Virus genome (UHGV): UHGV-0187499
Origin: a virus
DNA: 16,665 nucleotides
Reading direction: 5' to 3' (one strand)
This document shows positions 1,696 through 16,057 of this stretch, one piece after another (position 1 is the first letter of the stretch; every line of letters begins with the position of its first letter). A model generated the notes under the pieces. The model was not told the origin of the DNA. It saw nothing but the letters and a program-made list of their open reading frames with translations, and ran no database searches. Position numbers and translations under genes: made by a program.

Positions 1696-3081
1696 TTGAA
1701 CAAATCAGTTACTTCTGCGCTTTCCGAGGCCGCAGATATTAACAGCGTCATTGCTCTGGTTTCTTCATTAGAGAGGAAAGAAACACGCCTGGGGCGAAGT
1801 AGCTACGTTGTCACCAGCAAAGGTGCAGAGGTAAAGACGGCTTTTAAGGTCGTTGATGCCAGCAGTCTGATCATTTCGAACAACCTTGACGGTATGATTA
1901 ACCCGGCCTTCCCGGAAGAACTCCAACCACGAGATCGTACCCGGCTATCCAGCAAACTCCAGGTTAACCGTATTGCCTCCAATTTACGCCCGGCACAATT
2001 AACGGATTCCGGTATGAGCAGCCACGGAGCGCCGATAGTTGGTCCGGACAACGTTGTTGAATCCGGCAACGGAAGGAGTATGGGTATCTGGCGTGCCTAT
2101 GAGCAAGGACAGGCGGATGAGTATCGCCAGTACCTGATCGACCATGCGAAAGAGTTTGGTCTGAATCCTGACGAAATTTCGCAAATGTCTATGCCCGTAC
2201 TAGTGCGAGAAAGACTCACAGATGTAGACCGCGCTCAATTTGCCCGCGATTCAAACATTAGCGATCTGCAAGAGATGGCAGCAAGTGAAAAAGCGTATGC
2301 GGATGCGCAATTTCTCACTGAGAGCGTCATGGCGCTATTTAATCCTTCAGATGATGGAAATCTGCTGGCGCGGTCCAATGATGCGTTTATTCGTGCGTTT
2401 TTGCGCGAAATTGGCGATACAGCGACGGCAGGCTTGCTTACTGCCGATGGGCGTCCCACGAAACAGCTTATCGATCGCATCCAGAATGCAATTTTTGCCA
2501 AAGCGTACAAGGATGAAAGGCTTGTTCGGCTAGTGTCGGAAGAGCCAGATCCGGAAATGCGTAATATCCTGACCGCATTAAATACGGCAGCCAGCGATTT
2601 TGCGCAAATGCAGTCGCTGTCTGGCGACGCTCACCATGACGCAGTAACAGGCTTAGTGGACGGTATAGAGCAGGTTAATGGCCTGGATAAACAGGCTATT
2701 GCAGCGCTACAGGAAGCAATTAACCTTGTTCGTGAAGCAAAAGATAACGGTCAGGCAGTAGAAGAGGTGATCGCACAGCGTGGATTGTTTGGAGATAGCA
2801 CTCCGGAAGCAGAAGCGCTTGCTCTGTTTATTGTTGCCAACAACCGAAGCGCTAAGCGAATGGGGGCCGCTTTCAAGAAACTGGCGCAAAAAATTAACGA
2901 TGAACTTATTCACCAACAACAAGCGTTAGGCGATATGTTCGGCGGCGGAGATGTCGATCTGCGTAGCATTTTATCTGCCGTTTCTGATGAAATTGAGGGT
3001 GAATTTGGCGAAGGGAAAGGTCTGAACTTTGCTATGTTTGAAAATTCTACAGTTCTAAATAATTGCAGTATGGAAAACTAA
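1696..3081 (+). CDS. Hypothetical phage protein (about 461 aa); acidic, Gly-rich C-terminus; candidate head or internal protein
   Basis: ORF track 1684-3081. Preferred start is TTG 1696, with GGAG at 1686-1689 six nt upstream; TTG 1684 is an alternative. No Walker A, so not a terminase large subunit. Sits directly upstream of the portal-like gene. Confidence 0.55.
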   Translation: MNKSVTSALSEAADINSVIALVSSLERKETRLGRSSYVVTSKGAEVKTAFKVVDASSLIISNNLDGMINPAFPEELQPRDRTRLSSKLQVNRIASNLRPAQLTDSGMSSHGAPIVGPDNVVESGNGRSMGIWRAYEQGQADEYRQYLIDHAKEFGLNPDEISQMSMPVLVRERLTDVDRAQFARDSNISDLQEMAASEKAYADAQFLTESVMALFNPSDDGNLLARSNDAFIRAFLREIGDTATAGLLTADGRPTKQLIDRIQNAIFAKAYKDERLVRLVSEEPDPEMRNILTALNTAASDFAQMQSLSGDAHHDAVTGLVDGIEQVNGLDKQAIAALQEAINLVREAKDNGQAVEEVIAQRGLFGDSTPEAEALALFIVANNRSAKRMGAAFKKLAQKINDELIHQQQALGDMFGGGDVDLRSILSAVSDEIEGEFGEGKGLNFAMFENSTVLNNCSMEN

Positions 3082-3145: not shown

Positions 3146-4828
3146 ATGGCAACGAAAGACAAAAACAAAGGCTTTCTGTCAGCATTGAAGAAAGCCTTCA
3201 ACGGTGGTGATGTTACGCCCGCCGATCCGGTCGTTTTTACGAGCGGGCATAGTGTCGTTGCTCGTTCCGGCCTGTCTGCTTTACGTCCAGGTATACTGGG
3301 GAGCAACAGCGATGGCATGACGAGTGCAGCAGATTCAATTTCTTTATCCGCTGAACTGCCCGGCGAGCGCCTGCAAAAGTACAACATCCTGGAAACGATG
3401 GCTAAAAGCCCGACTATCTCGACGGCTTTAAACATTCACATTGCACATGCGCTTGCGCCTTCAAAAAAAACCGGACAAGCATTCATCCTTTCGCCAAAGG
3501 ATGGTTCCGATGCTGAGGCAGTAAGTAGATGTGAAGAGTTAACCGCTGATTTGGGGGCGATGATTAATGACGGACTTCCTTCATGGGCCATGATTATGGC
3601 TATCTTTGGGGTGTCTTATGTCCGACCTTATGCTGAACAGGGCAGGGGGATAACAGGCATTGAGTCCAGTTATTACACTCTGCCACACTTCGTCCAGGAG
3701 TTTTATCGTGGTAGCCAGCTGGTAGGTTTCAGTGGTGATTACATTCTGGATACGCATAGTTTGCGCAGAGTAATAACCGAACCGTGGAATCTGGTTTCCA
3801 TGAAAAATCCCTATTGGACACCACAGCATAAAGTTATTCCGGTTAGCTACGGCACAAAAGGGTACTCACTGTTAAGTGATCAGGCTGATAAGCCGTTAAT
3901 GGAGACGCAGAATTACGGAACTTCATTCCTGGAATACAGCTATGAACCTTACCTTAATTTATGTGCTTCGCTCGCCGCGCTGAAATCAACGCGAAATAAT
4001 GCAGCCAAAATTGACCGCCTGATTGCTCTTACGACGAACACACTGGACCCGGTTAATGCGGCGAACTATACGCGTGGCGTCAGCCAGGCATTGAAGCGTC
4101 ATAGTGACCTGGTGGCGCAAAGGTCGATTAATGCCAACGCTATTCCGACTGTGCTTAACCATCTGATACCTGTTATGGGAGACGGGAAGAACGGCATCAC
4201 CATTGATACGCAATCCATACCCGCAGATATCAGTGGTATCGAAGACGTTATGTTTCACCTCCGGCAGCTTGCTGCAAGCCTCGGCATTGACGCAACAATG
4301 CTTGGCTGGGCTGATCAGATGAGCGGAGGGCTTGGAGAAGGCGGCTGGCAGCAAACTGCTATCCAGGCTGCATTGCGTGCGAACTGGATCAGACAGGCCG
4401 CCCAGCGAACTATTTATCGGCTTCTGGACATTCACCTCGCTTATAAATACGGCAAGGTTTACACCGAAACAAACCGCCCTTATGACGTGCAATTCAACTC
4501 AATGAACACTGCTATCCAGGAAGAGGAAAACCGAGAACTGGATGCACGCGCCAACTTTGTTGCTGTCATCTCCCAAATTATGGACCAGATCCAGAACAAC
4601 CCGAAACTGGCTGGTAGCGACGCGTTTATGCGTTATCTGTTCACTGAGCAGTTGCACATCGACGATGACACTCTCAACACCATGATCAAAGAGTTTAAGG
4701 CGAATGAATCAGAGCAAAACAACGAGCATGGTATGTACGAATCCGCGCCGTTGTCGTCCGGTGACGATCCGGAAAACTGGACGCCAGAACAGTTAATAAA
4801 CTTTGCAAAATTTGTGATGAGCAATTAA
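3146..4828 (+). CDS. Portal-like protein (candidate), 560 aa
   Basis: 560 aa with no NTPase motifs, an acidic C-terminal tail, and a position immediately upstream of a protease/scaffold-like gene that it abuts closely. The assignment rests on size and position, not on a recognised motif. Confidence 0.5.
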   Translation: MATKDKNKGFLSALKKAFNGGDVTPADPVVFTSGHSVVARSGLSALRPGILGSNSDGMTSAADSISLSAELPGERLQKYNILETMAKSPTISTALNIHIAHALAPSKKTGQAFILSPKDGSDAEAVSRCEELTADLGAMINDGLPSWAMIMAIFGVSYVRPYAEQGRGITGIESSYYTLPHFVQEFYRGSQLVGFSGDYILDTHSLRRVITEPWNLVSMKNPYWTPQHKVIPVSYGTKGYSLLSDQADKPLMETQNYGTSFLEYSYEPYLNLCASLAALKSTRNNAAKIDRLIALTTNTLDPVNAANYTRGVSQALKRHSDLVAQRSINANAIPTVLNHLIPVMGDGKNGITIDTQSIPADISGIEDVMFHLRQLAASLGIDATMLGWADQMSGGLGEGGWQQTAIQAALRANWIRQAAQRTIYRLLDIHLAYKYGKVYTETNRPYDVQFNSMNTAIQEEENRELDARANFVAVISQIMDQIQNNPKLAGSDAFMRYLFTEQLHIDDDTLNTMIKEFKANESEQNNEHGMYESAPLSSGDDPENWTPEQLINFAKFVMSN

Positions 4829-6040: not shown

Positions 6041-7003
6041 GTGAATATTTTAAATTCAATTTCAGTAACTTTCAACACTTCTGAGTATAAAAACAACACT
6101 GAATACCACAAAAAAATCAAAGGTCATCAGTTGAGTTTTTTTGCTCGTCATAGCGGTTTTCTTTCCCCTTCACATAGCGCCATTATTGCCGAGTTCGCCA
6201 ACCTGGCAGGAGCTACCGATGAATACATGATCCGTCGCTCATATGCTGATATGTCCGAGATTACAGGACGCAGTATTTCTACTGTGCGCCGGGCATTTGC
6301 TGAAGCGACGAAGTGCGGAATGCTTGTTAAGCAACATCAGGTAGCGAATAACAATGCTCAGGTGTGTAACGTATACCGGTTTACAACACAATTTCTCCAC
6401 TTCATTCATGTAGCAATGGAGATAGGGGGTAAGCAGGGCATCAAATTTGCGAACGCCACAAAACTGGTTAAGCAGTTGATTTCAAAGGTTCGGTATTTTT
6501 TTGAAACTGGGAACCCCCTGTTCAAATTGAACAAGTCCCCCCATGTTCAAAATGAACAGCCAATAGAAAATAAGAGTCACTCTATAGCCAAAAGAAGAGA
6601 AAGATCATGCGCGGTTCAGCCAAAGGCTTCACCAGCGGATAGTTCTCAAGCGGATAATGGGATGCTGGATAAAAAACCAGTAATCAGGGAAGAACATACC
6701 AACCACTGCCTGGCGGCGGCAAAAGCGAGAGCTGCAAAGCGTCGTTCAGACGAGGGGCACGCAAAACGGCAGGCTCTGTATCGTACCGCTGAAAAGCTGG
6801 CAAAAAAATTTGCATGGATACGTAGTGCCGCTACCGCAGTGAATAAGCCTAAACAATCCAGTGCCCTGGATTTCTCAATGGATTATTCTGGCTCCCAGGG
6901 GTGTGCAACCATTGGTGAAGCCTTTGACCTGATGAAACAGCGTGGCTATCGGTCTGAATTTGACCGGGAGGATTGGTCAATCCCTGCGGGATTTAGGGGA
7001 TGA
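6041..7003 (+). CDS. HTH DNA-binding protein; candidate replication initiator or regulator; start codon uncertain
   Basis: HTH-like segment MSEITGRSISTVRRAFAEATKCGMLVKQ and a basic C-terminal region (KRRERS..., KARAAKRRSDEGHAKRQ). The first 80 nt of the maximal ORF are AT-rich and may be leader. Alternative in-frame starts are TTG 6131 (AAAGG seven nt upstream) and ATG 6227, which is preceded by an AGGAG-driven 3-codon mini-ORF whose TGA overlaps it. Stop is TGA 7001-7003. Confidence 0.5.
   Translation: MNILNSISVTFNTSEYKNNTEYHKKIKGHQLSFFARHSGFLSPSHSAIIAEFANLAGATDEYMIRRSYADMSEITGRSISTVRRAFAEATKCGMLVKQHQVANNNAQVCNVYRFTTQFLHFIHVAMEIGGKQGIKFANATKLVKQLISKVRYFFETGNPLFKLNKSPHVQNEQPIENKSHSIAKRRERSCAVQPKASPADSSQADNGMLDKKPVIREEHTNHCLAAAKARAAKRRSDEGHAKRQALYRTAEKLAKKFAWIRSAATAVNKPKQSSALDFSMDYSGSQGCATIGEAFDLMKQRGYRSEFDREDWSIPAGFRG
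6514..6559. repeat. Two tandem palindromic iteron-like repeats embedded in the HTH protein coding sequence; origin- or operator-like
   Basis: CCCCC-TGTTCA-AAT-TGAACA (6514-6533) and CCCCCCA-TGTTCA-AAA-TGAACA (6536-6558), period about 25 bp, followed by a purine-rich A-tract region (6562-6606). Confidence 0.6.
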
Positions 7004-7046
7004 CCTGTGTGTCTACAAAACATCCCAATGATCGGAAAATGCTCGC

Positions 7047-7112
7047 TCGATGATTTGTATTAGAAAATTAATTTGCTGTTTCTAAATCGGAATGTATGAT
7101 CTGCATCATCGA
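7047..7112 (+). promoter_or_regulatory. Candidate sigma70 promoter bracketed by an 8-bp inverted repeat
   Basis: TTGCTG (7073-7078), 16-nt spacer, TATGAT (7095-7100). Flanked by TCGATGAT (7047-7054) and ATCATCGA (7105-7112). Inner dyad TTAGAAA (7060-7066) / TTTCTAA (7079-7085) overlaps the -35. Confidence 0.3.
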
Positions 7113-7141
7113 CTGAAGTCATCCATTGCTGAAATTTTTAG

Positions 7142-7170
7142 TTGATCTTCCATGTTTTCAGGCTTATATT
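7142..7170 (+). promoter_or_regulatory. Candidate sigma70 promoter for the antisense-RNA / antirepressor operon
   Basis: TTGATC (7142-7147), 17-nt spacer, TATATT (7165-7170); the predicted start site would lie about 25 nt upstream of target copy 1. Confidence 0.3.
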
Positions 7171-7200
7171 CATGCCGTCGTAGCAAATTCTGCGACCAGG

Positions 7201-7222
7201 TTTGACAGCCTGAATGATTGTG
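7201..7222 (+). promoter_or_regulatory. Upstream copy of the antisense target pair (a1/b1-like): TTTGACAGC ... TGATTGTG
   Basis: TTTGACAGC at 7201-7209 and TGATTGTG at 7215-7222. This is a direct repeat of the pair at 7370-7406 and is complementary to CTGTCAA and CACAATC in the candidate RNA. Confidence 0.4.
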
Positions 7223-7290
7223 CGGACAACCGCAGATTTCCGATATTGCGGTATTTTTGTGTCCGTTAAACCGCGTTACGCCCAAATTAT

Positions 7291-7364
7291 GGTGGGGCGT
7301 GATGGGGAGGCTTCGGCCTGCTGGTTTCACAATCGCCAGTCTGTCAACCCTGTCACGTCCTGCC
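7291..7364 (+). ncRNA. Candidate c4-like antisense regulatory RNA, about 74 nt, structured
   Basis: Hand fold: a 12-bp closing stem (7291-7302 with 7353-7364, including three G-U pairs); a C(UUCG)G tetraloop hairpin at 7308-7319; a second hairpin (stem 7320-7324 / 7336-7340) presenting CACAATC (7328-7334) in its loop; and single-stranded CTGTCAA (7341-7347). Both boxes are complementary to both target copies. Confidence 0.4.
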
Positions 7365-7369
7365 ACCTG

Positions 7370-7409
7370 TTTGACAGCGGGTAGCAGGTTGTTAAACCTG
7401 ATTGTGAGG
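7370..7409 (+). promoter_or_regulatory. Downstream copy of the antisense target pair (a2/b2-like), overlapping the RBS of the 74-codon ORF
   Basis: TTTGACAGC at 7370-7378. TGATTGTG at 7399-7406 overlaps the Shine-Dalgarno GTGAGG (7404-7409), eight nt before ATG 7418. Confidence 0.4.
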
Positions 7410-7417
7410 CCGTAACT

Positions 7418-7642
7418 ATGGTTAACGCCAATCCTTGCTCACGTCCAGAATTCATCTGGCGTTTCCACTCCCTGCAAAAACACTGCGATCACTTCGCAAT
7501 TGCCGCAACCGAAAAAGAAGCCCGTTCTCTGATCCCTGATCAGTATGGTGTTCTTACTGGTCGTTTCTCTACTTCCCCACAACCAAACACTAATCCTTGG
7601 TATCGCAATATTACCAATCCCGGCATTGCGGAGGCACATTGA
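7418..7642 (+). CDS. Small leader ORF (74 aa), translationally coupled to the downstream antirepressor-like gene; icd-like by position
   Basis: GAGG eight nt upstream of ATG 7418. Stop TGA 7640-7642 overlaps ATG 7642 of the next gene. Its RBS is covered by the b2-like box. Confidence 0.5.
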   Translation: MVNANPCSRPEFIWRFHSLQKHCDHFAIAATEKEARSLIPDQYGVLTGRFSTSPQPNTNPWYRNITNPGIAEAH

Positions 7643-8349
7643 TGGATATCTGCATTCTTGAAAAGCCATCAATGACCAGCATTGAGATCGCGGAACTGGT
7701 GGGAAAACGTCATGACAATGTGAAGCGTACCATTGAAACATTAGCCGAATCCGGCGTTATTGTTCGTCCTCAAATTGAGGATGAACCAAAAATAGATGTA
7801 ATGGGGCGTTCTCGATTAATTCAGGTGTTTCGATTTAGCGACGAGCAAGGCAAACGAGACAGTATCATTGTAGTCGCACAGCTTTGTCCTGAGTTTACTG
7901 CCCGGCTTGTGGACCGCTGGCGCGAACTGGAAGAACAAGTACGCCAGCCGTTGACCGAAATAGAGATGATCGCCGCAATGGCTGCAAATGCAGTTCAGCA
8001 GCAAAAGCGGCTTCATGTTGTTGAGTCAAAGGTTAGCCAGGTGGTAGAAACCGTCGAGCAAATCAAGAAAGGCAATATTCCGGAAGGCTACATTGGCTAC
8101 CGCCAGCTGGCGGCAAAATGCGGCCTGACCGAAGCCAAATGTCGCAACCTGGTTAACGCTTTCCGGATTCCCACCGATACACATGAGTTTTTAACTCCAG
8201 AGGGGGTATTGTCGCGTCGTTCCATCGTAGCCTTATCTCCCTTCATGAATGCTTTTAACCGGATGATGTCGGAGGCTGAACACCGAGGAAAACGCTGGTA
8301 TCACCCCAAAATGGGGCAATTCCAGGTGATCGGTTGGGGAGGTGAATGA
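7642..8349 (+). CDS. Rha-family phage regulatory / antirepressor-like protein (235 aa)
   Basis: N-terminal motif MTSIEIAELVGKRHDNVKRTIETL matches the Rha-family signature. GGAGG at 7629-7633, eight nt before ATG 7642. The ORF-track start at 7597 is an upstream in-frame extension that overlaps the leader ORF. Confidence 0.75.
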   Translation: MDICILEKPSMTSIEIAELVGKRHDNVKRTIETLAESGVIVRPQIEDEPKIDVMGRSRLIQVFRFSDEQGKRDSIIVVAQLCPEFTARLVDRWRELEEQVRQPLTEIEMIAAMAANAVQQQKRLHVVESKVSQVVETVEQIKKGNIPEGYIGYRQLAAKCGLTEAKCRNLVNAFRIPTDTHEFLTPEGVLSRRSIVALSPFMNAFNRMMSEAEHRGKRWYHPKMGQFQVIGWGGE

Positions 8350-9119: not shown

Positions 9120-9147
9120 TTGACGGTAGTATCTTCCCCGTGAAAAT
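9120..9147 (+). promoter_or_regulatory. Candidate promoter for the giant methyltransferase-helicase gene
   Basis: TTGACG (9120-9125), 16-nt spacer, GAAAAT (9142-9147). If this -10 is real, GTG 9140 cannot be the start codon, which supports TTG 9215. Confidence 0.3.
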
Positions 9148-9214
9148 AACATTCTCCATACCCTCTCAACCGTACCGCATAGCGGATTTTTTACGGTTTA
9201 GAGGGGGTAATCCT

Positions 9215-12200
9215 TTGGATAAACTACTTCATTCAATCAGTGAAGCCTCCAGCTTAGGCGAACTGATTGAGATTGTTAGTCGGTTGCATAAATTACGTGC
9301 TGTTGCGACCTTTGGCGTTAAGAAAGTCGATGGTGTCAGCATTCAAAAAACACGGCGGGCAGCAAACAACGCCGCAGTAGAGCTTCTTAATTCCCTTCCG
9401 CCCGGCTTCGATGGGGCGAAATTAACTGACGAACAGCGTCAGATTCTTGCCGGGTATACCGGTGAAGGCGGCCTGACAGATGGTGAGGGCAGCCAATACG
9501 AATACTACACGCCACAGTTTATGGCTGAAGGTATATGGGATCTGTTTGCTGACTACGGTATTGATGGCGGGCACGTACTGGAACCATCAGCGGGCACAGG
9601 TATTTTCCAGGAGACAAAACGACAGGGCATGATAATGACCAGCGCCGAACTGTCTCCGATTTCCGGTCGAATAAACCAGCTTTTGCACCCGGAAGACGAT
9701 GTGAATATCGGGGCGTTTGAGGCGCTGGCGGCGAAAGACGCAACGTATGATCACGCTGTTGGTAACGTACCGTTTGGTGAAGGGCGTTCCGGTGTCGCCG
9801 GGCTTGATCCGGCATATGCAAACGAGAAGAACGTTGGCAATTACTTTGTGCTGCGCACTATCGACAAGGTTAAGCCAGGTGGGCTTATCGTATTGGTGGT
9901 GCCGAATGGCATGACCGATGGTACGAAATATAAAAAATTGCGCGATAAAGTCAGCCGTAAAGCGGAATTTTTGGGCGCACATCGTATGCCTTCCGGTACG
10001 TTCAGCGAATCCGGTACAGATACCGTGGTGGACGTATGGGTATTGCGTAAACACCCGGAAACCTTCCTGGAGATGATCCCCGACACGGATGATTCAACAC
10101 TCAAATCGGCAAACGTCCTTTGGGATGCCTTCCTCAAAGGAAAATGGTTTACAACCGAAGGGAAGCGATTTGTTTACGGCGACATGGAACGTACCAGCTT
10201 CCGCAATACCCTGGTGGTGAAAAAGGACGGTCGTGTATCCAATGAGTCGATGAAAACCGCGCTATCTCGTCGCTTTGATAGTCGCATTAATTGGGATTTG
10301 CTCGGCGTAACTACTCAGGCATGGCAGGGCGCGAAAGTGGGCGATAAACGCCTAGTAGGCGGCATCTGGCATGAGTTTGATGGCCTGAAATGGGTCAAGG
10401 ACACGACAACCAAATCCTCCGCGCTTGATGTAAGTCGATATGGTGTTTCGACATTCGGTGATCTGCAAACAACGTTCCAATCAACAAACGGCATTCTGGC
10501 TCTGTCATGGGGGCAGATATCCGCGATCGCTTCCGACTATCCATCGGTTATCAGTGATGAAGTAGCGGCAATGATTCGCTTTGCTGGGAAACAACGCGAA
10601 AAAGACCGTGAGCGCATTATGCGCGGTGCGCTGATCGGGCAACTTATCAATAAAGCGCTGGATAAGCGTAACCTTGGTGAAAACGTCGATGATGAACTGG
10701 CTGATGCCGCACGTCTGACGGCTGCCGAAGTTGCTAAATATGGCCCACCACACGCCATTAAGCTAAACGACATTACCGAAGCGGGCGCGAAGAACTGGCT
10801 GACATTCACCGGGAACGTCAATCAGGACGGTGAAGCATCCGATCTGCTGTCCGGACGGCTTGATGTTAGCAAAGGGGCTGCTGGTATTGATTTCACTCGT
10901 CCGGAACAGGTTGTGACACACCTTTTCAGCGATGTTGCCCTTAATCCTATCAATCTTGATGACTTCCGCGAGGCGTTTAAAGGCGAACTGCCAGAAGACG
11001 ACGATCAAGCACTGGAATACCTGGCGAAATTCGACGATATCGCTATTGATGGATATGGTTGCCTGCTACCGATGGGCCGTGCCACTAGCGGTGATATTAA
11101 ATCAAAAGTGGCACTGCTGGTGGGCTGGCGAGACGCGTCCACAGGAGAGCGGAAGGCCAACTTTGAGCGCCAGCTTTCAAAAATCGAAGAGAAACGCACG
11201 TTTACACCGCTGAACAAAGTCACGGTAAACCTTAACGCACGGTGGTTGGATCGCCGCCTGATAAAAGAGTTCCTGGCAGAGCAGGGCTATGACGAGTTTA
11301 AGTATACAGAACCCGACCTTAAGGTTGAGAACGGCATTCTGGTATCCCCGGACGATTACGAAGGTAAGGACGGGGTATTTACTGGCTACCAGCTACGAAC
11401 CGTAAACGGCAAAAACGGGAACGAGTTCAAGAAAGCGAATAACAAAGATGGCTTCCTGAATCAGCTTGAGAACTACCTGAACGGTGTTAAACCGCGCGGA
11501 CAGAACGCTAACGAGTACCTGGACAAAATCGCCCAGCTTGAGACGAGTTTTAACGACTGGTTAAGAACTCACCCGCAGGCAGACCAGATCGCCCGCGATT
11601 ATAACGACGCCTTTAACGGTTATATTCCATTTACCCATTCAGACGCACCCCTGGGGCTTGAAGGCATCAGCGGGAAACGTATACCGCTTTCTTACCAGAA
11701 CGAAGAAGTTCGTCGTCTGTCGGAAGATGGGCGCGGTATTATGGGATTCGGAACTGGTTTGGGTAAAACGACGACCGCGCTGGCACTGGAAGCCTATAAC
11801 TTTGAAACCGGGCGAACCAAACGTACCTGTATCGTTGTTCCAAAGGCCGTATACCAGAACTGGTATCACGAGGCACAGAGCTTCTACAGTGCAGATGCCT
11901 TCGCCAATATGATGTTTATCGGTCTGGACGAAGTGCGCGATGGTGACGGAAATATTCAGACTGCCCCAGTGCTCGACCAGGACGGCACCCCGCGACTTGA
12001 TAACGACGGCAATCCGATCACCCGTAATGTTGTTAAAGAATCCGCCAGTGCCGTTATCGCTCAACGCATGAACATGATCCCATCGTCGAACTGGCGAACG
12101 GTCATCATGACAAAAGAGCAGTTCGCATCTATCCCGTTGCGCGATGAAACCATCGGAGAAAACTCACAGCAGGCTGTCTTTAATGCCGCCGAAATGGGGC

Positions 12201-15200
12201 GTCTTGACCTGGCGTCAGGCAAGCACCGTGATGCGCAGAAGAAGAACAAGATTAAGGACCAGGCCGCGAATACCGGTACAGCGAAGAAGCAGAATATCCC
12301 GTACTTTGAGGATATGAACTTCGATAGCGTAATTGCCGACGAAGGGCACAACTACCGCAACTCCTTTGGTGCCGGGCGTGAAGCGGGGCAACTGGCATAT
12401 TTACCTAATCCGGCGGTATCCAAAATGGCCCGTGACATGGCTGTAAAAGCTGCGTACATGATGAAACGTCACAATGGGCGCGGCGTCGTAATGCTGACAG
12501 CAACTCCGCTGGTTAATAGCCCTATTGACGCCTTCAACATGCTGTCAACGGTGATCCCTCAGCACGAGTGGATGCACATGGGAATTATTACCCCTGACGA
12601 CTTTGTGCGAGTGTTCGGTAAAACAGCCACTGTTCAGGTCCAGAAAATTTCTGGCGAAGTGGAAGAGAAACAGGGGCTGGTGGGCTTCCAGAACCTTGAT
12701 GGTCTGCGTGGCATTTTCCACCGCTGGACAACGCTTAAAACGGCTTCCGATGTTGGTGCAACGGTAAAAATCCCGGATATCGTCGAAAACACCTTGCAGA
12801 TCCCAATGACTCCAGAGCAGCAAGCAGCTTATGAAGAGCTTCGTAAACGCGCGCAGGAGTTAAGTAGTAAAGATGCGCTGACGGTCGATGAAAACGGGCA
12901 TATCACAAACGAAAAACCGGATGATTTCATCTTCTCCATCATCCGCGACATGGATAAGGTTGCTATAGATCCTGATCTGTATGCCAGTGCGATTACATTC
13001 CAGTTCCCCGTTGAGCTTGCAGACAAGGTAAAAGCTATTGCTGATGCCCTGCCAAAAGTAGCTGGCGGTAAAGTGGCAGATGATGCAGACGAGGCCGAAG
13101 AAGATGGCGCTGGTGGGCTGGTCAGTACGCGTACCAGCAAGGTAGTGAAGACCACCTTTAGCGAACATCCGTCGCATGTTGAAATACGTGCTGGCATTGA
13201 ACTGGAAGCTGAAATACTGAAGGCCATTGCGGCTGCCGGTATTGATATGCAGCAGGTATCACACCCCATCCCGCCGAAGTATGCCGCGCTGATCGAAAAC
13301 CTTCGTGAAGGTCTGAAGAACGGTAAACAAATCGTCTTCATTGATGAAAAAGCCCAGCACCAGAAGCTGCGCCGTATTATTGCCAGTGCACTGCAAATGC
13401 CGGAGCAGGAGATAGGCATTATCAATGCGACGACAGTTAGCCAGGCTGGCGGCGTCAAGCTGAAGAAGGTGAATAAGCCGACTGAACCTACGCCAAACAA
13501 AGACGGTGAATACAAAGAAGGCGCATGGGAAACCTACTACAGTAAACTGGCCCAATATGAGGATTATCTCTCTGCTAAAAATGATGCTGGCCTTGAGGGG
13601 ATGGAAGGTATTGCTGCCGACTATAACGAAGGGCGCACGCGAATCATTATCTGTAACAAGAAAGCCGAAGTAGGTATCAACCTGCATATTGGAACGACCG
13701 ATATTCACCACCTGACACTACCCTGGACTCCTGCCAGTATCGACCAACGAAATGGGCGAGGTGCGCGCGTAGGTTCTCCGCAAGAGAAGGTTAATGTTCA
13801 CTATTATTGTGGCAAAGGCACATTCGATGACTTCCGTCTGGATACGCTTAAACGTAAGAAAGACTGGATCAAGATGGTGATGACCTCCGATATGTCAGAG
13901 ATCGCCAATGGTGATGCGGATGACGCTGATGAACGCGCCATTATGCTGGCGGCAAATCCGGAAGAACGACGCGCAATTATGGCTCGTCAGTCGAAAGAAC
14001 GTGAGGAACGCCTGCGACTTAAAGCGCAACGCGAAGCCAATAATGCTCTCGATAACTACCTGAAAGCGGCGAATGCTGCCGGGAAGGATATCGGCATGAT
14101 GGAGGCAGAACTGAAAAGCGCGATGGAGCAGGTGCAACGATACCAGAGTGATCTGGATGGACTGATTAAGAGCGGCATCAACAAAAACGGACAGAAATAT
14201 ACGCTTTCAGCACTAAGCAAAGCTAAAAAAAGTGTGCGTGAATTGCGATTTGCAATCACCAGGGCGAAGGACGCGGATACTGTTATGAAACGCTCTCGTG
14301 GTGATGTGGAGCGTGCTATTAAGTCTGGTGTGCTGGATATCAGTATCGATGTTATTCAGAACCCGCAGGAGTATATTCGCACTGGCAAGAACATCCTGTT
14401 GCATAAAGGTAGTTACTACCGTGCAGTCATTAATGCTGAATACGAGACAACGGCGATTGTACGCGTGACACAAATTGAGAGCGAAAAAGCGCAATTCACC
14501 TGCCGCGTCGCCTGGCTGGATAGAGCAAGTCGCCACTCTCGTTCTCCTGGCTCAACCATGACATTACCGTTTGACTCAGTGGTTGAAGCGGTAACATTTG
14601 AAGAGGGGGTGGCTGAATCACGAGAAATAGCGGCACGTGGTGTTCAAAGCCACCAGCTTTCAACCTCTCTTTCTCGCGATCAATTCTATGACGCTATTCG
14701 TAGCGGTGTTATGCGGGTAACTGGGAAAGATCGTGGCGGTTGGCAAGGAGCACCGGATGTAAACTATTGGGCTTATCGTAACGCCAATGGTCAGATTCAA
14801 ATGGCCTTTACCTATGGCGGGATGATTGGTAAAAAAATTAGCGCATCTGGAAGTGACGAGATAGCACCTGAACAATGGATTTATCCTGATGTAAACGACG
14901 AAGCATTAAAACGCGAAGTCGCGAAAATCCAGACAGGTGATAACCCACTTCGTATTTCAGAGGCAGAAGGTTTTCTCCGTGCATTGTTTGGCTTCGATTA
15001 TGAGCAAGGTATGGAGGCATGGGGCGCTCAGGCCACTATGGATGATGTGGTCAGGGCGTTCGATGGCTGGATGGCAGGGCGCGATCTCTCCGGGCGTTCA
15101 CTTGAAAAAGTGACTCAGGAAGATGTCCGCAGCTTGTTCCGCAAGCCAAATGGAGAAGGCCTGGAAACGTACTGGCGAGGCGTGCTTTCTTTCCGCGATT

Positions 15201-16057
15201 TCCAGGGGCGCATGAAAGCCTTCACCAATGGTTCGGAGATTTCGCAGATGTTCGAACAACTGCGAACGTCCAAAATCACAACCAAAATTGAGAAAACACG
15301 CATGGCGCTAAATGCATGGCGTGATGCGCTGTTTGATCAGTACAAAATGCAAAGTGATGCAGATGGTTGGGCGTCACTTGCCTCGTTGGCAGATCAGTCA
15401 GTTTACAGTGCGCAACTAAGCATTTCTAATGCCGATAATCCGCTTGAAACATCTGCAACAGTCTGGATTAAAGCGGGGGCGTTAATTCATGCATTTGAGG
15501 ATAAAAGCATTACCCGTGATGATTTCGCAGATGCAGATAGCTTGAATCGTCTTGTCGGGATGGCTATACGCCATGCTAACGCCTTAAAAGCGGGCAGGTA
15601 TGTGGAAGAGTTGCCTGATGCTCTGAAATCTGCAACGTGGGATGACTTTGTGTCGCTTAAAAATGGTGGCGCTACGGAGTCAGAGATTGCTGAACGTCTT
15701 GCGGCGGCTAAGACTGAACGGGAAGAACAGGCTGATGCAGCAGAGATCAAGGCTGACGAGGCAGCAAATGATGATTACATTATCGTGGTAAACGATAAGC
15801 CTATTCGCGCCAAAGCACGTGTACGCGGGCGCTGGTGGAGCGTAAGTGAAGACGCTGGTGCTGTTTATCTCATTGCCGATCAGCCCGGTTCCTCGACAAT
15901 ACGGAACGCCAAGGACGCGATTAAGAAGATTGGCGGGCGTTTCTGGAATTTTGAAGCAAACCCGGTTGCTGATGTGAACTTTGACCGTCCGGCATGGATG
16001 GTATCTACTCGTTACTCGGTAGATGAACTACGTAAAATAATCGCCGATGCGGCTTAA
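9215..16057 (+). CDS. darB: DarB-like giant anti-restriction protein: N6-adenine methyltransferase fused to an SF2 helicase with a long C-terminal extension (about 2280 aa)
   Basis: Methyltransferase motifs: YYTP (9503-9514), EPSAGTG (9581-9601), GNVPFG (9761-9778). Helicase motifs: GFGTGLGKTTTA (11744-11779), DEGH (12338-12349), TATP (12497-12508), QRNGRGARVG (13745-13774). Preferred start is TTG 9215 with GAGGGGG seven nt upstream; the ORF-track start GTG 9140 has no RBS and rare codons (ATA three times, AGA, CGG, GGG). Stop is TAA 16055-16057. Confidence 0.85.
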   Translation: MDKLLHSISEASSLGELIEIVSRLHKLRAVATFGVKKVDGVSIQKTRRAANNAAVELLNSLPPGFDGAKLTDEQRQILAGYTGEGGLTDGEGSQYEYYTPQFMAEGIWDLFADYGIDGGHVLEPSAGTGIFQETKRQGMIMTSAELSPISGRINQLLHPEDDVNIGAFEALAAKDATYDHAVGNVPFGEGRSGVAGLDPAYANEKNVGNYFVLRTIDKVKPGGLIVLVVPNGMTDGTKYKKLRDKVSRKAEFLGAHRMPSGTFSESGTDTVVDVWVLRKHPETFLEMIPDTDDSTLKSANVLWDAFLKGKWFTTEGKRFVYGDMERTSFRNTLVVKKDGRVSNESMKTALSRRFDSRINWDLLGVTTQAWQGAKVGDKRLVGGIWHEFDGLKWVKDTTTKSSALDVSRYGVSTFGDLQTTFQSTNGILALSWGQISAIASDYPSVISDEVAAMIRFAGKQREKDRERIMRGALIGQLINKALDKRNLGENVDDELADAARLTAAEVAKYGPPHAIKLNDITEAGAKNWLTFTGNVNQDGEASDLLSGRLDVSKGAAGIDFTRPEQVVTHLFSDVALNPINLDDFREAFKGELPEDDDQALEYLAKFDDIAIDGYGCLLPMGRATSGDIKSKVALLVGWRDASTGERKANFERQLSKIEEKRTFTPLNKVTVNLNARWLDRRLIKEFLAEQGYDEFKYTEPDLKVENGILVSPDDYEGKDGVFTGYQLRTVNGKNGNEFKKANNKDGFLNQLENYLNGVKPRGQNANEYLDKIAQLETSFNDWLRTHPQADQIARDYNDAFNGYIPFTHSDAPLGLEGISGKRIPLSYQNEEVRRLSEDGRGIMGFGTGLGKTTTALALEAYNFETGRTKRTCIVVPKAVYQNWYHEAQSFYSADAFANMMFIGLDEVRDGDGNIQTAPVLDQDGTPRLDNDGNPITRNVVKESASAVIAQRMNMIPSSNWRTVIMTKEQFASIPLRDETIGENSQQAVFNAAEMGRLDLASGKHRDAQKKNKIKDQAANTGTAKKQNIPYFEDMNFDSVIADEGHNYRNSFGAGREAGQLAYLPNPAVSKMARDMAVKAAYMMKRHNGRGVVMLTATPLVNSPIDAFNMLSTVIPQHEWMHMGIITPDDFVRVFGKTATVQVQKISGEVEEKQGLVGFQNLDGLRGIFHRWTTLKTASDVGATVKIPDIVENTLQIPMTPEQQAAYEELRKRAQELSSKDALTVDENGHITNEKPDDFIFSIIRDMDKVAIDPDLYASAITFQFPVELADKVKAIADALPKVAGGKVADDADEAEEDGAGGLVSTRTSKVVKTTFSEHPSHVEIRAGIELEAEILKAIAAAGIDMQQVSHPIPPKYAALIENLREGLKNGKQIVFIDEKAQHQKLRRIIASALQMPEQEIGIINATTVSQAGGVKLKKVNKPTEPTPNKDGEYKEGAWETYYSKLAQYEDYLSAKNDAGLEGMEGIAADYNEGRTRIIICNKKAEVGINLHIGTTDIHHLTLPWTPASIDQRNGRGARVGSPQEKVNVHYYCGKGTFDDFRLDTLKRKKDWIKMVMTSDMSEIANGDADDADERAIMLAANPEERRAIMARQSKEREERLRLKAQREANNALDNYLKAANAAGKDIGMMEAELKSAMEQVQRYQSDLDGLIKSGINKNGQKYTLSALSKAKKSVRELRFAITRAKDADTVMKRSRGDVERAIKSGVLDISIDVIQNPQEYIRTGKNILLHKGSYYRAVINAEYETTAIVRVTQIESEKAQFTCRVAWLDRASRHSRSPGSTMTLPFDSVVEAVTFEEGVAESREIAARGVQSHQLSTSLSRDQFYDAIRSGVMRVTGKDRGGWQGAPDVNYWAYRNANGQIQMAFTYGGMIGKKISASGSDEIAPEQWIYPDVNDEALKREVAKIQTGDNPLRISEAEGFLRALFGFDYEQGMEAWGAQATMDDVVRAFDGWMAGRDLSGRSLEKVTQEDVRSLFRKPNGEGLETYWRGVLSFRDFQGRMKAFTNGSEISQMFEQLRTSKITTKIEKTRMALNAWRDALFDQYKMQSDADGWASLASLADQSVYSAQLSISNADNPLETSATVWIKAGALIHAFEDKSITRDDFADADSLNRLVGMAIRHANALKAGRYVEELPDALKSATWDDFVSLKNGGATESEIAERLAAAKTEREEQADAAEIKADEAANDDYIIVVNDKPIRAKARVRGRWWSVSEDAGAVYLIADQPGSSTIRNAKDAIKKIGGRFWNFEANPVADVNFDRPAWMVSTRYSVDELRKIIADAA

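Follow-up and report, generated by a model that had tools for sequence, protein, structure and literature searches.

The window, i.e. the whole stretch of 16,665 nucleotides that we analysed, is a D6-like E. coli phage-plasmid related to P1. The window and phage D6 have their genes in the same order, darA-ddrA-ddrB-prt-pro-repL-(c4)-icd-ant(Rha/Roi-like)-small ORF-peptidoglycan hydrolase(-)-darB, and positions 6900-7705 are 96% identical to D6 at the DNA level. D6-like prophages have been described to carry c4, icd and an anti-repressor beside a peptidoglycan hydrolase gene (PMC6799933). The window differs from D6 by the absence of orf24 and orf23, by its anti-repressor (Ant), which is 86% identical and diverges in the N-terminal third, and by one of the two box types described below, box b (ACTTAC/GTAAGT in D6, GATTGT/ACAATC in the window).

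Between repL and icd we read, all on the + strand, two copies of TTTGACAGC (7201-7209 and 7370-7378) and two copies of TGATTGTG (7215-7222 and 7399-7406). The first repeat contains TTGACAG, called box a1 (7202-7208) and box a2 (7371-7377), and the second contains GATTGTG, called box b1 (7216-7222) and box b2 (7400-7406). Their reverse complements, box b' (CACAATC, 7328-7334) and box a' (CTGTCAA, 7341-7347), are located between the copies. All six boxes are perfect, a' and b' being complementary to their targets at seven of seven positions, and the two duplicated targets and two antisense boxes reported in the earlier note are thus all found in the sequence. The identification of a1, b1, a2 and b2 agrees with the annotation of P1 and with covariation; a1 is also situated in the loop of a hairpin CAGG...CCTG and inside an Rfam c4-a1b1 match. 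From comparison with P1, P7 and D6 and from a survey of box codes, b' is a P7-type allele and a' a P1/D6-type allele. The earlier note had also placed the second target copy over the Shine-Dalgarno sequence of a 74-codon ORF; indeed GAGG (7406-7409) shares one base with the second GATTGTG, so that b2 and the Shine-Dalgarno together occupy 7400-7409, and the ATG of the ORF is at 7418.

Counted over the whole window, the heptamers are unremarkable by number, with 5 copies of TTGACAG for 2.1 expected and 3 copies of GATTGTG for 2.9 expected. Nevertheless, every GATTGTG site of the window and three of the five TTGACAG sites are found within 206 bases, interleaved in the order a-b-b'-a'-a-b. When we scanned for any six-box arrangement of two 7-mers with a span of at most 260 bases, the present module was the single match in the window, and such a module was present in one of 1000 dinucleotide-preserving shuffles, both strands counted. 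Since the geometry of the module is identical when read from either strand, the strand was assigned from the Rfam matches, the Shine-Dalgarno and ATG, and homology.

The region between the first and second target copies matches the Rfam family C4 (RF01695) at 7285-7370 with 68.4 bits for a threshold of 45, on par with the positive controls P1 (68.8 bits), P7 (69.6 bits) and D6 (69.6 bits). From this match, from the mapping of the c4 misc_RNA of P1 and from the fold energy, we predict a mature c4 antisense RNA of 77 nt at 7291-7367 (+). Folding, which the earlier note had proposed as a check, gave a stable structure with a minimum free energy of -42 kcal/mol (z = -4.58), in which a long stem closes two hairpins; b' occupies the loop of hairpin 2, and a' lies in a single-stranded joint. 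The c4 of the window differs by 2 nt from that of P1, by 3 from that of P7 and by 4 from that of D6, and of 210 c4 copies taken from fetched loci, 21 have exactly the same 77-mer. The processing-site sequence of P1 c4, AUUAU|GGUGGGG, is kept in the window and the 3' end, ...GCCACC, is the same as in P1. According to PMC5320573, RNase P makes the 5' cut of c4 in P1 and P7 at this same AUUAU|GGUGGGG sequence.

The DNA of the region is 94% identical to immI of P1 and P7 over 274 bases. The elements of the module, a1, b1, c4 (with b' and a'), a2 and b2 over the icd Shine-Dalgarno, follow one another in the same order and at the same distances. The a1, b1, c4 RNA, a2, b2 and icd start of P1 map base for base to 7202-7208, 7216-7223, 7291-7367, 7371-7377, 7400-7407 and 7418 of the window, and both elements have a homologous promoter -10, a homologous Icd and an icd stop that overlaps the next start. 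The neighbours differ: upstream there are sim genes in P1 and P7 and repL in the window, and downstream the payload is Ant1/Ant2 in P1 and an unrelated 235-aa Rha-family protein in the window. Taken together with the covariation of the boxes, the Rfam matches and the 94% identity indicate that the region is directly homologous to the immI c4 module of P1 and P7. The proposal that it follows the c4/icd/ant paradigm of P1 is supported, the Rfam C4 and c4-a1b1 models both scoring above threshold. The c4 switch found here is therefore an already described element and no discovery; c4-icd-ant has counted as a textbook example of antisense control since 1990.

Two genes follow the module on the + strand. 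The first, icd (7418-7642, 74 codons), is a leader ORF for an Icd-like cell-division inhibitor with 61% identity to P1 Icd (E = 8e-27), and the gene at this place carries an Icd-like annotation in D6 and RefSeq plasmids. The second (7642-8349) encodes the 235-aa protein, assigned to the Rha family (Pfam Phage_pRha, 36.6 bits) and 86% identical to the D6 'anti-repressor Ant'; it is, by homology, a candidate anti-repressor. By BLASTP it has no similarity to P1 Ant1 (E = 0.37). The icd stop overlaps the ATG of the Rha-family gene in TGATG (7640-7644), suggesting that the translation of the two genes is coupled. Among contigs with one genome per species, a search for relatives of Icd yielded no confirmed loci and the exact c4 core found three.

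Upstream, the only promoter-like site between 6950 and 7700 is a sigma-70-type site, TTGATC-17-TATATT, at 7142-7170 (+); it was detected by a promoter scan and its -10 aligns with that of the P1 promoter P1c4 (formerly P51b). This equivalent of the constitutive P51b is the sole promoter found, no counterpart of the promoter P51a or of the C1-controlled Op51 operator of P1 being detected in the window. A search for the P1-type C1 operator ATTGCTCTAATAAATTT gave no match with up to 3 mismatches; the best score in the window was 12/17, located elsewhere. Because no P1-type C1 operator is present upstream, the control of the promoter may differ from that in P1. Transcription most likely starts near G7177, where a start is expected for this promoter and where the isrK model match presented below also begins. 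As a separate observation, the sequence ATTGCTGAAATTTTTAG at 7125-7141 has the ATTGCT half of the C1 operator and is present as a single copy in the window.

Covariation of the boxes with their targets, whose absence the earlier note had named as refuting its reading, was determined in a set of 53 distinct homologous sequences and is near-perfect, so that the reading passes this check. We observed that a1:a' is paired in 100% of the cells, with 4 of 7 pairs changed on both sides, and b1:b' in 99.7%, with 6 of 7 pairs changed on both sides, while a2:a' and b2:b' are each paired in 98.4%. All the pairing failures trace to one misaligned row, and each box pairing has both-side changes in 2-6 of its 7 pairs. 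The covariation of a1/b1 with a'/b' is as tight as that of a2/b2. When the partners were slid by 1-3 columns as a control, pairing fell to 33-54%. In a second, independent collection of 63 loci from genomes and metagenomes, the box sets matched perfectly in 59. Mismatched sets are seen in the loci L164, L167, L183 and L185.

Among 118 viral contigs we counted at least 13 box codes, built from two major alleles of a and six or more of b; all ten combinations of the two main a and five main b alleles are present. Some elements carry two or three stacked complete modules, all with different codes, and the six-box layout with other codes is found in phiV10, a Klebsiella phage, a second D6 locus and an Arsenophonus plasmid. 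In this combinatorial pattern a and b assort independently of one another, each being kept in register at three sites, and the two boxes may act as digits of specificity. The code of the window combines the a box of P1 with the b box of P7, and this code is also found in 11 of the 118 viral contigs and in 8 of the 63 other loci.

The first target pair lies in a structured leader. The Rfam model c4-a1b1 (RF03163) matches 7164-7216 with 54.4 bits (threshold 46.7), and the P1, P7 and D6 controls score equally. The isrK Hfq-binding RNA model (RF01394) matches 7177-7258 over its full length (1-77 of 77, E = 3.4e-8 in a 351-base search) with 43.0 bits, which is below the gathering score of 50. From these matches, from compensatory changes and from hairpin energy, we consider 7177-7258 (+) as an IsrK-type leader RNA containing a1 and b1. 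Its parts are, from 5' to 3', hairpin 1 (7177-7196), the a1 hairpin (7197-7212), b1 and a terminator-like hairpin (7229-7252) followed by a U tract (7254-7258), all on the + strand; compensatory changes are seen in hairpin 1 and in the terminator stem. The terminator-like hairpin has -8.5 kcal/mol, within the range of the isrK family members, and is conserved among relatives together with U tracts. The U tract of the window is interrupted (AUUUUUG), so that termination at this hairpin may be weak. A generic terminator scan did not report the 7229-7252 hairpin, whose loop of more than 8 bases exceeds the limits of the scan. The isrK loci of Gifsy-1, phiV10 and Klebsiella phages have the same parts as the window, namely hairpin 1, a hairpin with a1 in its loop, a b1 linker, a terminator hairpin (terminator-like in the window) and a U tract, followed by a C4-type RNA and by an anti-repressor-type gene under translational control, which is predicted for the window. 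The relatives L130, L213, L214 and L215 score 51-80 bits, and in L130, phiV10, the Klebsiella phage and the second D6 locus an isrK match above threshold is directly followed by C4 and then by an anti-repressor gene. A long-range helix predicted between 7197-7212 and 7385-7400 was set aside: the changes in it are mostly one-sided, D6-type sequences have lost part of it, and it stays a prediction.

From its sequence, structure, homology and covariation we are highly confident that the region is an immI-type c4 immunity module, with a mechanism whose processing, repression and payload role we carry over from experiments on P1 and P7. The known mechanism is summarised in PMC5320573, PMC8546580 and PMC12197685. 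A transcript reading through the whole region would carry, in order, the a1/b1 leader, c4, the a2/b2 targets, icd and the Rha-family anti-repressor gene, and the 77-nt c4 RNA (7291-7367) would be excised from it. The folded c4 would expose b' in a loop and a' as a single strand, which would pair with b2 (7400-7406) and a2 (7371-7377). Since b2 overlaps the icd Shine-Dalgarno, the b2:b' pairing would cover it and ribosomes would be unable to load on icd; since the start of the anti-repressor gene overlaps the icd stop, the anti-repressor would remain untranslated too. Without anti-repressor, the prophage would be kept repressed and immune. The specificity of this immunity would be set by the two boxes, by analogy with P1 and P7, for which a difference of 4 nt is reported to be enough to make the two phages heteroimmune (PMC5320573).

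The strict Watson-Crick covariation of direct and inverted repeats would, taken alone, also be compatible with heptamers acting as DNA operators of a sequence-specific protein that co-evolves with its sites. The earlier note had already doubted a simple protein operator, and we reject this reading as extremely improbable. Indeed, the boxes occupy unpaired parts, a loop and a joint, of an RNA fold that is backed by the Rfam model, by G-C/G-U alternation in the c4 stem and by the z-score of -4.58, and in the Klebsiella phage homologue b2:b' contains a G.U wobble in place of a Watson-Crick pair, suggesting that pairing takes place at the RNA level. The codes also assort independently of the linked proteins: among relatives with c4 both payload classes occur, with the same box codes, and as the N-terminus of Icd is conserved, no nearby protein covaries with the boxes. 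Moreover, action at the RNA level was demonstrated by experiment for the P1/P7 homologues (Citron & Schuster 1990, cited after PMC5320573). A protein could also be encoded by the region itself, as a small C4 repressor: ORFs of 56, 65 and 86 codons span it (7214-7384, 7218-7415 and, on the minus strand, 7106-7366), X15639 annotates 'c4: CDS' and RCS47 a 'transcriptional regulator C4'. Such a protein is ruled out, to the point that we give it practically no weight, by a 1-nt indel at 7276-7277 among close homologues (CCGTTAAACC versus CCGT-AAACC in P1 and many others), which shifts the frame of all three ORFs and leaves the c4 structure and boxes unaffected; furthermore the variable positions cluster in the boxes, where the changes compensate one another in the RNA and do not follow a synonymous pattern. 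That the module is a decayed remnant with no regulatory role in this element is very unlikely as well. The missing P1-type C1 operator and the replacement of the Ant1/Ant2 payload would fit such decay, but the six boxes are perfectly complementary, the c4 77-mer and the box code recur in other elements at the frequencies given above, phage D6 has the same arrangement, and the promoter, Shine-Dalgarno, icd and coupled Rha-family ORF are all intact.

The remaining alternative is a variant of the c4 mechanism and concerns the role of a1 and b1, which the database record of P1 labels only as 'putative' targets. The earlier note had placed them upstream on the c4 transcript; this would hold for read-through RNAs only, because the terminator-like hairpin (7229-7252) intervenes between a1/b1 and c4. 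In the Salmonella prophage Gifsy-1, a Rho-independent terminator forms the end of the short IsrK. This RNA has complementarity to a downstream RNA of about 80 nt that arises by processing, and it activates the translation of orf45-anrP in trans (PMC4825925). Given this precedent of a separately terminated activator of an anti-repressor-like operon, a1/b1 may be an anti-c4 decoy. The most likely addition to the mechanism would then be that many transcripts stop at 7229-7258 and release an IsrK-type RNA of about 82 nt, whose a1 and b1 would bind c4 and oppose its action; the switch would be flipped by a burst of promoter activity. The full-length isrK match, the isrK-C4-anti-repressor adjacency in relatives, the conserved terminator hairpin with its compensatory changes and U tracts, and the tight covariation of a1/b1 with a'/b' all point in this direction. 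On the other side, the isrK score does not reach the gathering threshold, P1-type copies have an interrupted U tract, so that their short RNA may be rare, and the geometry of Gifsy-1 differs from that of the window, the regulated orf45 starting inside the region that yields the processed RNA. The documented effect of the Gifsy-1 short IsrK is activation, which may apply to P1-type modules by analogy. On balance, we regard a decoy that relieves c4 repression as a genuine possibility, held at clearly less than even odds.

If the c4 module is extended by both features, it would form a three-RNA toggle with a two-digit address, in which the a1/b1 IsrK-type RNA (7177-7258) acts as decoy and the independently assorting boxes give the address, a(P1)/b(P7) in the window. 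We put this combined model forward only tentatively, as rather unlikely; the immunological meaning that box combinations may have, and the function of the decoy, go beyond the pattern itself. If true, the decoy would link the long-unexplained a1/b1 of P1 to the activator function of the Gifsy-1 IsrK, and the similarity of the leader to this small-RNA family already provides a testable function for the 'putative' sites of P1. By its published description, the seqA - CI RNA - seqC immunity region of satellite phage P4 also resembles the module: processing of the operon leader yields a small RNA that controls the operon and pairs with complementary boxes on either side of itself (PMC4825925); the CI RNA of P4 differs in that it causes premature transcription termination and no Shine-Dalgarno block.

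The box code can be read from the sequence and predicts co-immunity among P1-like elements. With one box in common with P1 and the other with P7, the element of the window would be well suited to show whether two mismatched nucleotides in one box are enough for heteroimmunity. The region occurs in 536 of the 5426 complete E. coli genomes, at about 660 E. coli genome places, and in about 585 PLSDB plasmids, and in RefSeq/GenBank plasmid records c4 is unannotated or mislabelled as a protein.

The earlier note had placed two repeated target boxes, two antisense boxes and a ribosome-binding site in this region, and by reading 6900-7800 directly we found every one of its coordinates borne out. On the + strand, TTTGACAGC stands at 7201-7209 and 7370-7378 and TGATTGTG at 7215-7222 and 7399-7406; between the copies lie CACAATC (7328-7334) and CTGTCAA (7341-7347), and downstream are the Shine-Dalgarno GAGG (7406-7409) and the ATG of the 74-codon ORF (7418). 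Heptamer counts over the whole window are by themselves unremarkable (TTGACAG, 5 observed for 2.1 expected; GATTGTG, 3 for 2.9). What is remarkable is the clustering of the heptamers within 206 bases in the order a-b-b'-a'-a-b. A search for any six-box set of two 7-mers in this layout, spanning at most 260 bases, returned this module as its single match in the window and found one in only 1 of 1000 dinucleotide-preserving shuffles. Since the box geometry is mirror-symmetric, the strand was assigned from other evidence.

At curated thresholds, Rfam recognized two families in the window, the C4 antisense RNA (RF01695; 7285-7370, 68.4 bits, threshold 45) and the a1/b1 target motif (RF03163; 7164-7216, 54.4 bits, threshold 46.7). 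Both were also matched in the positive controls P1, P7 and D6 (C4, 68.8-69.6 bits; a1/b1 motif, 51-55.9 bits), the C4 match in P1 spanning the annotated c4 gene. Over the 274 bases of 7157-7430, identity with P1 and P7 is 94%, and megablast of 6900-7800 showed phage D6 to be 96% identical over 6900-7705. The features of the P1 RefSeq record were carried onto the window by alignment, all on the + strand: upstream targets a1 (7202-7208) and b1 (7216-7223), the 77-nt c4 RNA (7291-7367), second targets a2 (7371-7377) and b2 (7400-7407), and the icd start (7418). The predicted c4 RNA has a folding energy of -42 kcal/mol (z = -4.58) and consists of two hairpins and a long closing stem, b' occupying the hairpin 2 loop and a' the unpaired joint. 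The earlier observation is confirmed, and its interpretation as an antisense module of the P1 c4/icd/ant type is supported. The module belongs to a long-known system that curated models detect and that is common among E. coli plasmid prophages.

The sole promoter-like site found in 6950-7700, TTGATC-17-TATATT (7142-7170, + strand), has a -10 aligned with that of the P1 promoter P1c4/P51b, and c4, the targets, icd and the next gene all lie downstream of it on the + strand. As the earlier note had stated, the second target copy covers the ribosome-binding site, b2 overlapping the Shine-Dalgarno of icd; further on, the stop codon of icd shares bases with the start of the next gene in TGATG (7640-7644). 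For P1/P7, processing, pairing and repression by c4 are treated in PMC5320573, PMC8546580 and PMC12197685. By analogy, c4 would be cut out of the operon transcript, its 5' end by RNase P, and its a' and b' boxes would pair with a2 and b2, blocking ribosome binding at icd. The downstream anti-repressor would then not be made, and lysogeny and immunity would be maintained. In P1, Rho-dependent polarity on ant also follows the loss of icd translation.

Co-variation had been named as the decisive test. For this purpose, we aligned 120 IMG/VR loci with the invariant c4 core, P1, P7, D6 and relatives found via Icd, which gave 53 distinct sequences. Standard pairs occupy 100% of cells for a1:a' (two-sided changes at 4 of 7 pairs) and 99.7% for b1:b' (6 of 7 pairs); for a2:a' and b2:b' the value is 98.4%, all failures coming from one misaligned divergent row. 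When the partners are shifted by 1-3 columns, pairing falls to 33-54%. The boxes therefore co-vary with both target pairs.

The 118 distinct contigs display 13 codes, or a'/b' allele pairs. The a' box has two main alleles, CTGTCAA (P1 and D6) and CTGCTAA (P7), and the b' box at least six hexamers, among them ACTAAC (P1), ACAATC (P7), GTAAGT (D6), ATTCGT, ATGTAC and ACAAGT; each of the two a' alleles was found with each of the five most frequent b' alleles, 10 pairings in all. Of 63 further loci, collected independently from genomes and metagenomes, 59 show a perfect match within the box set. The other four (L164, L167, L183 and L185) carry, for example, the c4 of one code beside the a1/b1 or b2 of another; these metagenome contigs are all either short or of low coverage, and may represent chimeric assemblies or natural recombinants that are derepressed. 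The window combines the P1 a box with the P7 b box, as do 11 of the 118 contigs and 8 of the 63 loci. Its predicted c4 differs from that of P1 by 2 nt, both in b', from P7 by 3 nt, two of them in a', and from D6 by 4 nt, all in b'; the 4 nt that distinguish P1 from P7 were reported to suffice to prevent cross-reaction (Citron & Schuster 1990, as cited in PMC5320573). Part of the remaining interest of the module lies in this combinatorial code, of which the window copy is a mixed P1/P7 type.

The heptamers could instead be DNA operators, a reading that we disfavour because the boxes fall where an independently supported RNA fold is unpaired, a homologue contains a G.U wobble and no linked protein co-varies with the code. 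It is also unlikely that the antisense module is a decayed remnant, since all its parts are intact and, among the 210 c4 copies taken from the collected loci, 21 have the identical 77-mer. A protein-coding c4 is excluded by 1-nt indels at 7276-7277 in close relatives, which shift all ORFs spanning it; spurious ORFs of 56, 65 and 86 codons lie over c4 (7214-7415, +; 7106-7366, -). The RNA has been mislabelled as a protein in GenBank X15639 ('c4: CDS') and phage RCS47 ('transcriptional regulator C4'), and RefSeq plasmid records leave the repL-icd interval without annotation.

Between b1 and c4 lies a terminator-like hairpin (7229-7252, + strand) followed by AUUUUUG (7229-7258 with the U tract), to which no feature of the P1 record maps. 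Its energy (-8.5 kcal/mol) is within the range of divergent homologues, which retain the hairpin, with compensatory changes in it and an uninterrupted U7 tract after it. By a permissive Rfam search, isrK (RF01394) matched here over its full model (7177-7258, 43.0 bits, E 3.4e-8, below the gathering score of 50), starting exactly at the expected transcription start. At the comparison locus L130, phiV10, a Klebsiella phage and the second D6 locus, isrK reaches 51-80 bits and is followed after 25-45 nt by C4 (66-78 bits) and then by an anti-repressor-type gene. At these loci the c4-a1b1 model overlaps the first part of isrK, and all four keep the six-box layout under codes of their own, the Klebsiella phage showing a G.U wobble at one b2:b' pair. 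From this order, overlap and layout, isrK and c4-a1b1 are descriptions of the same element. Rfam keeps isrK outside the C4 clan, and IsrK and c4 appear as unrelated entries in a 2025 review (PMC12197685).

In Gifsy-1, a Rho-independent terminator ends the short IsrK, the isrK-orf45-anrP mRNA arises by read-through, and IsrK, complementary to a processed ~80-nt downstream RNA, activates orf45-anrP translation in trans; Hershko-Shalev et al. likened it to P4 seqA/CI/seqC, not P1 (PMC4825925). By analogy, the window leader may be set free as an RNA of ~82 nt, binding c4 and counteracting it, and the equivalence with IsrK gives a1/b1 a testable function. Given the sub-threshold isrK score and the interrupted U tract, read-through may prevail in P1-type copies. 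In the minimum-energy fold of 7177-7440, a 16-bp long-range helix is also predicted (7197-7212 with 7385-7400), which joins the a1 hairpin to the a2-b2 spacer and is similar to the 'structure A' of the IsrK locus. By alternating between G.U and A-U, the helix can accommodate either a allele, and it is paired in 93.6% of cells of the 53-sequence alignment, D6-type copies losing the outer pairs.

The window is an E. coli phage-plasmid, D6-like and P1-related, with the gene order darA-ddrA-ddrB-prt-pro-repL-[c4]-icd-ant-small ORF-peptidoglycan hydrolase(-)-darB. A 281-base region of it is carried by 585 plasmids of PLSDB, and 536 of 5426 complete E. coli genomes have it too. The upstream neighbour is repL, whereas P1 has the sim genes, and a search of the window for a P1-type C1 operator found none. 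The gene behind icd encodes a Rha-family protein of 235 aa (Pfam PF09669), which shares 86% identity with D6 'Ant' and is unrelated to P1 Ant1 (E = 0.37); both classes of this payload gene occur behind c4 in relatives, independently of the code. Mosaic breakpoints lie at 7157, 7529 and 7705: similarity to P1 extends only over 7157-7529, and that to D6 (96%) stops at 7705. Residues ~22-80 of the anti-repressor candidate (about 7705-7880), its N-terminal Rha/winged-helix part, are unlike D6, whereas its C-terminal 150 residues are nearly identical. In D6, ddrB and the portal gene are separated by two extra genes, orf24 (a DUF4145 protein) and orf23; the window has neither, its ddrB ending at 3081 and its prt starting at 3146. 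The 2305-codon ORF at 9140-16057 is the counterpart of P1 darB, and its relatives are annotated as SNF2-related or DEAD-box helicase family proteins. An exact enterobacterial c4 core was also seen on a 2.9-kb contig labelled 'MAG: Bacillota bacterium' (L149, JAFAFU010000019.1), probably a mis-binned piece of a P1-like element.

A c4 with icd and an anti-repressor, even in a second copy, has been reported in D6-like prophages (PMC6799933). In D6, a second isrK+C4+icd+ant module lies ~54 kb from the first (L215, 1492-2913), and there is a weak third C4 match (L215, 1064-1143, 40.2 bits). Seven P1-like IMG/VR contigs carry two or three c4 copies each (L039/L102/L131, L042/L077/L126, L080/L089, L081/L124, L092/L118, L125/L138 and L133/L137), with icd and ant behind most copies as far as the collected DNA extends; the b' code differs between copies, ATGTAC being present in 7 of 7. 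The Arsenophonus plasmid paPb2 has two C4 genes (L212, 671-753, -, and 2040-2127, +), and the module inspected there shows the complete arrangement of six boxes in a code peculiar to it (a = TTGATAG, b = ACGAAAG), together with a U7 terminator. Downstream of this module are a small ORF and a transcriptional regulator in place of icd/ant.
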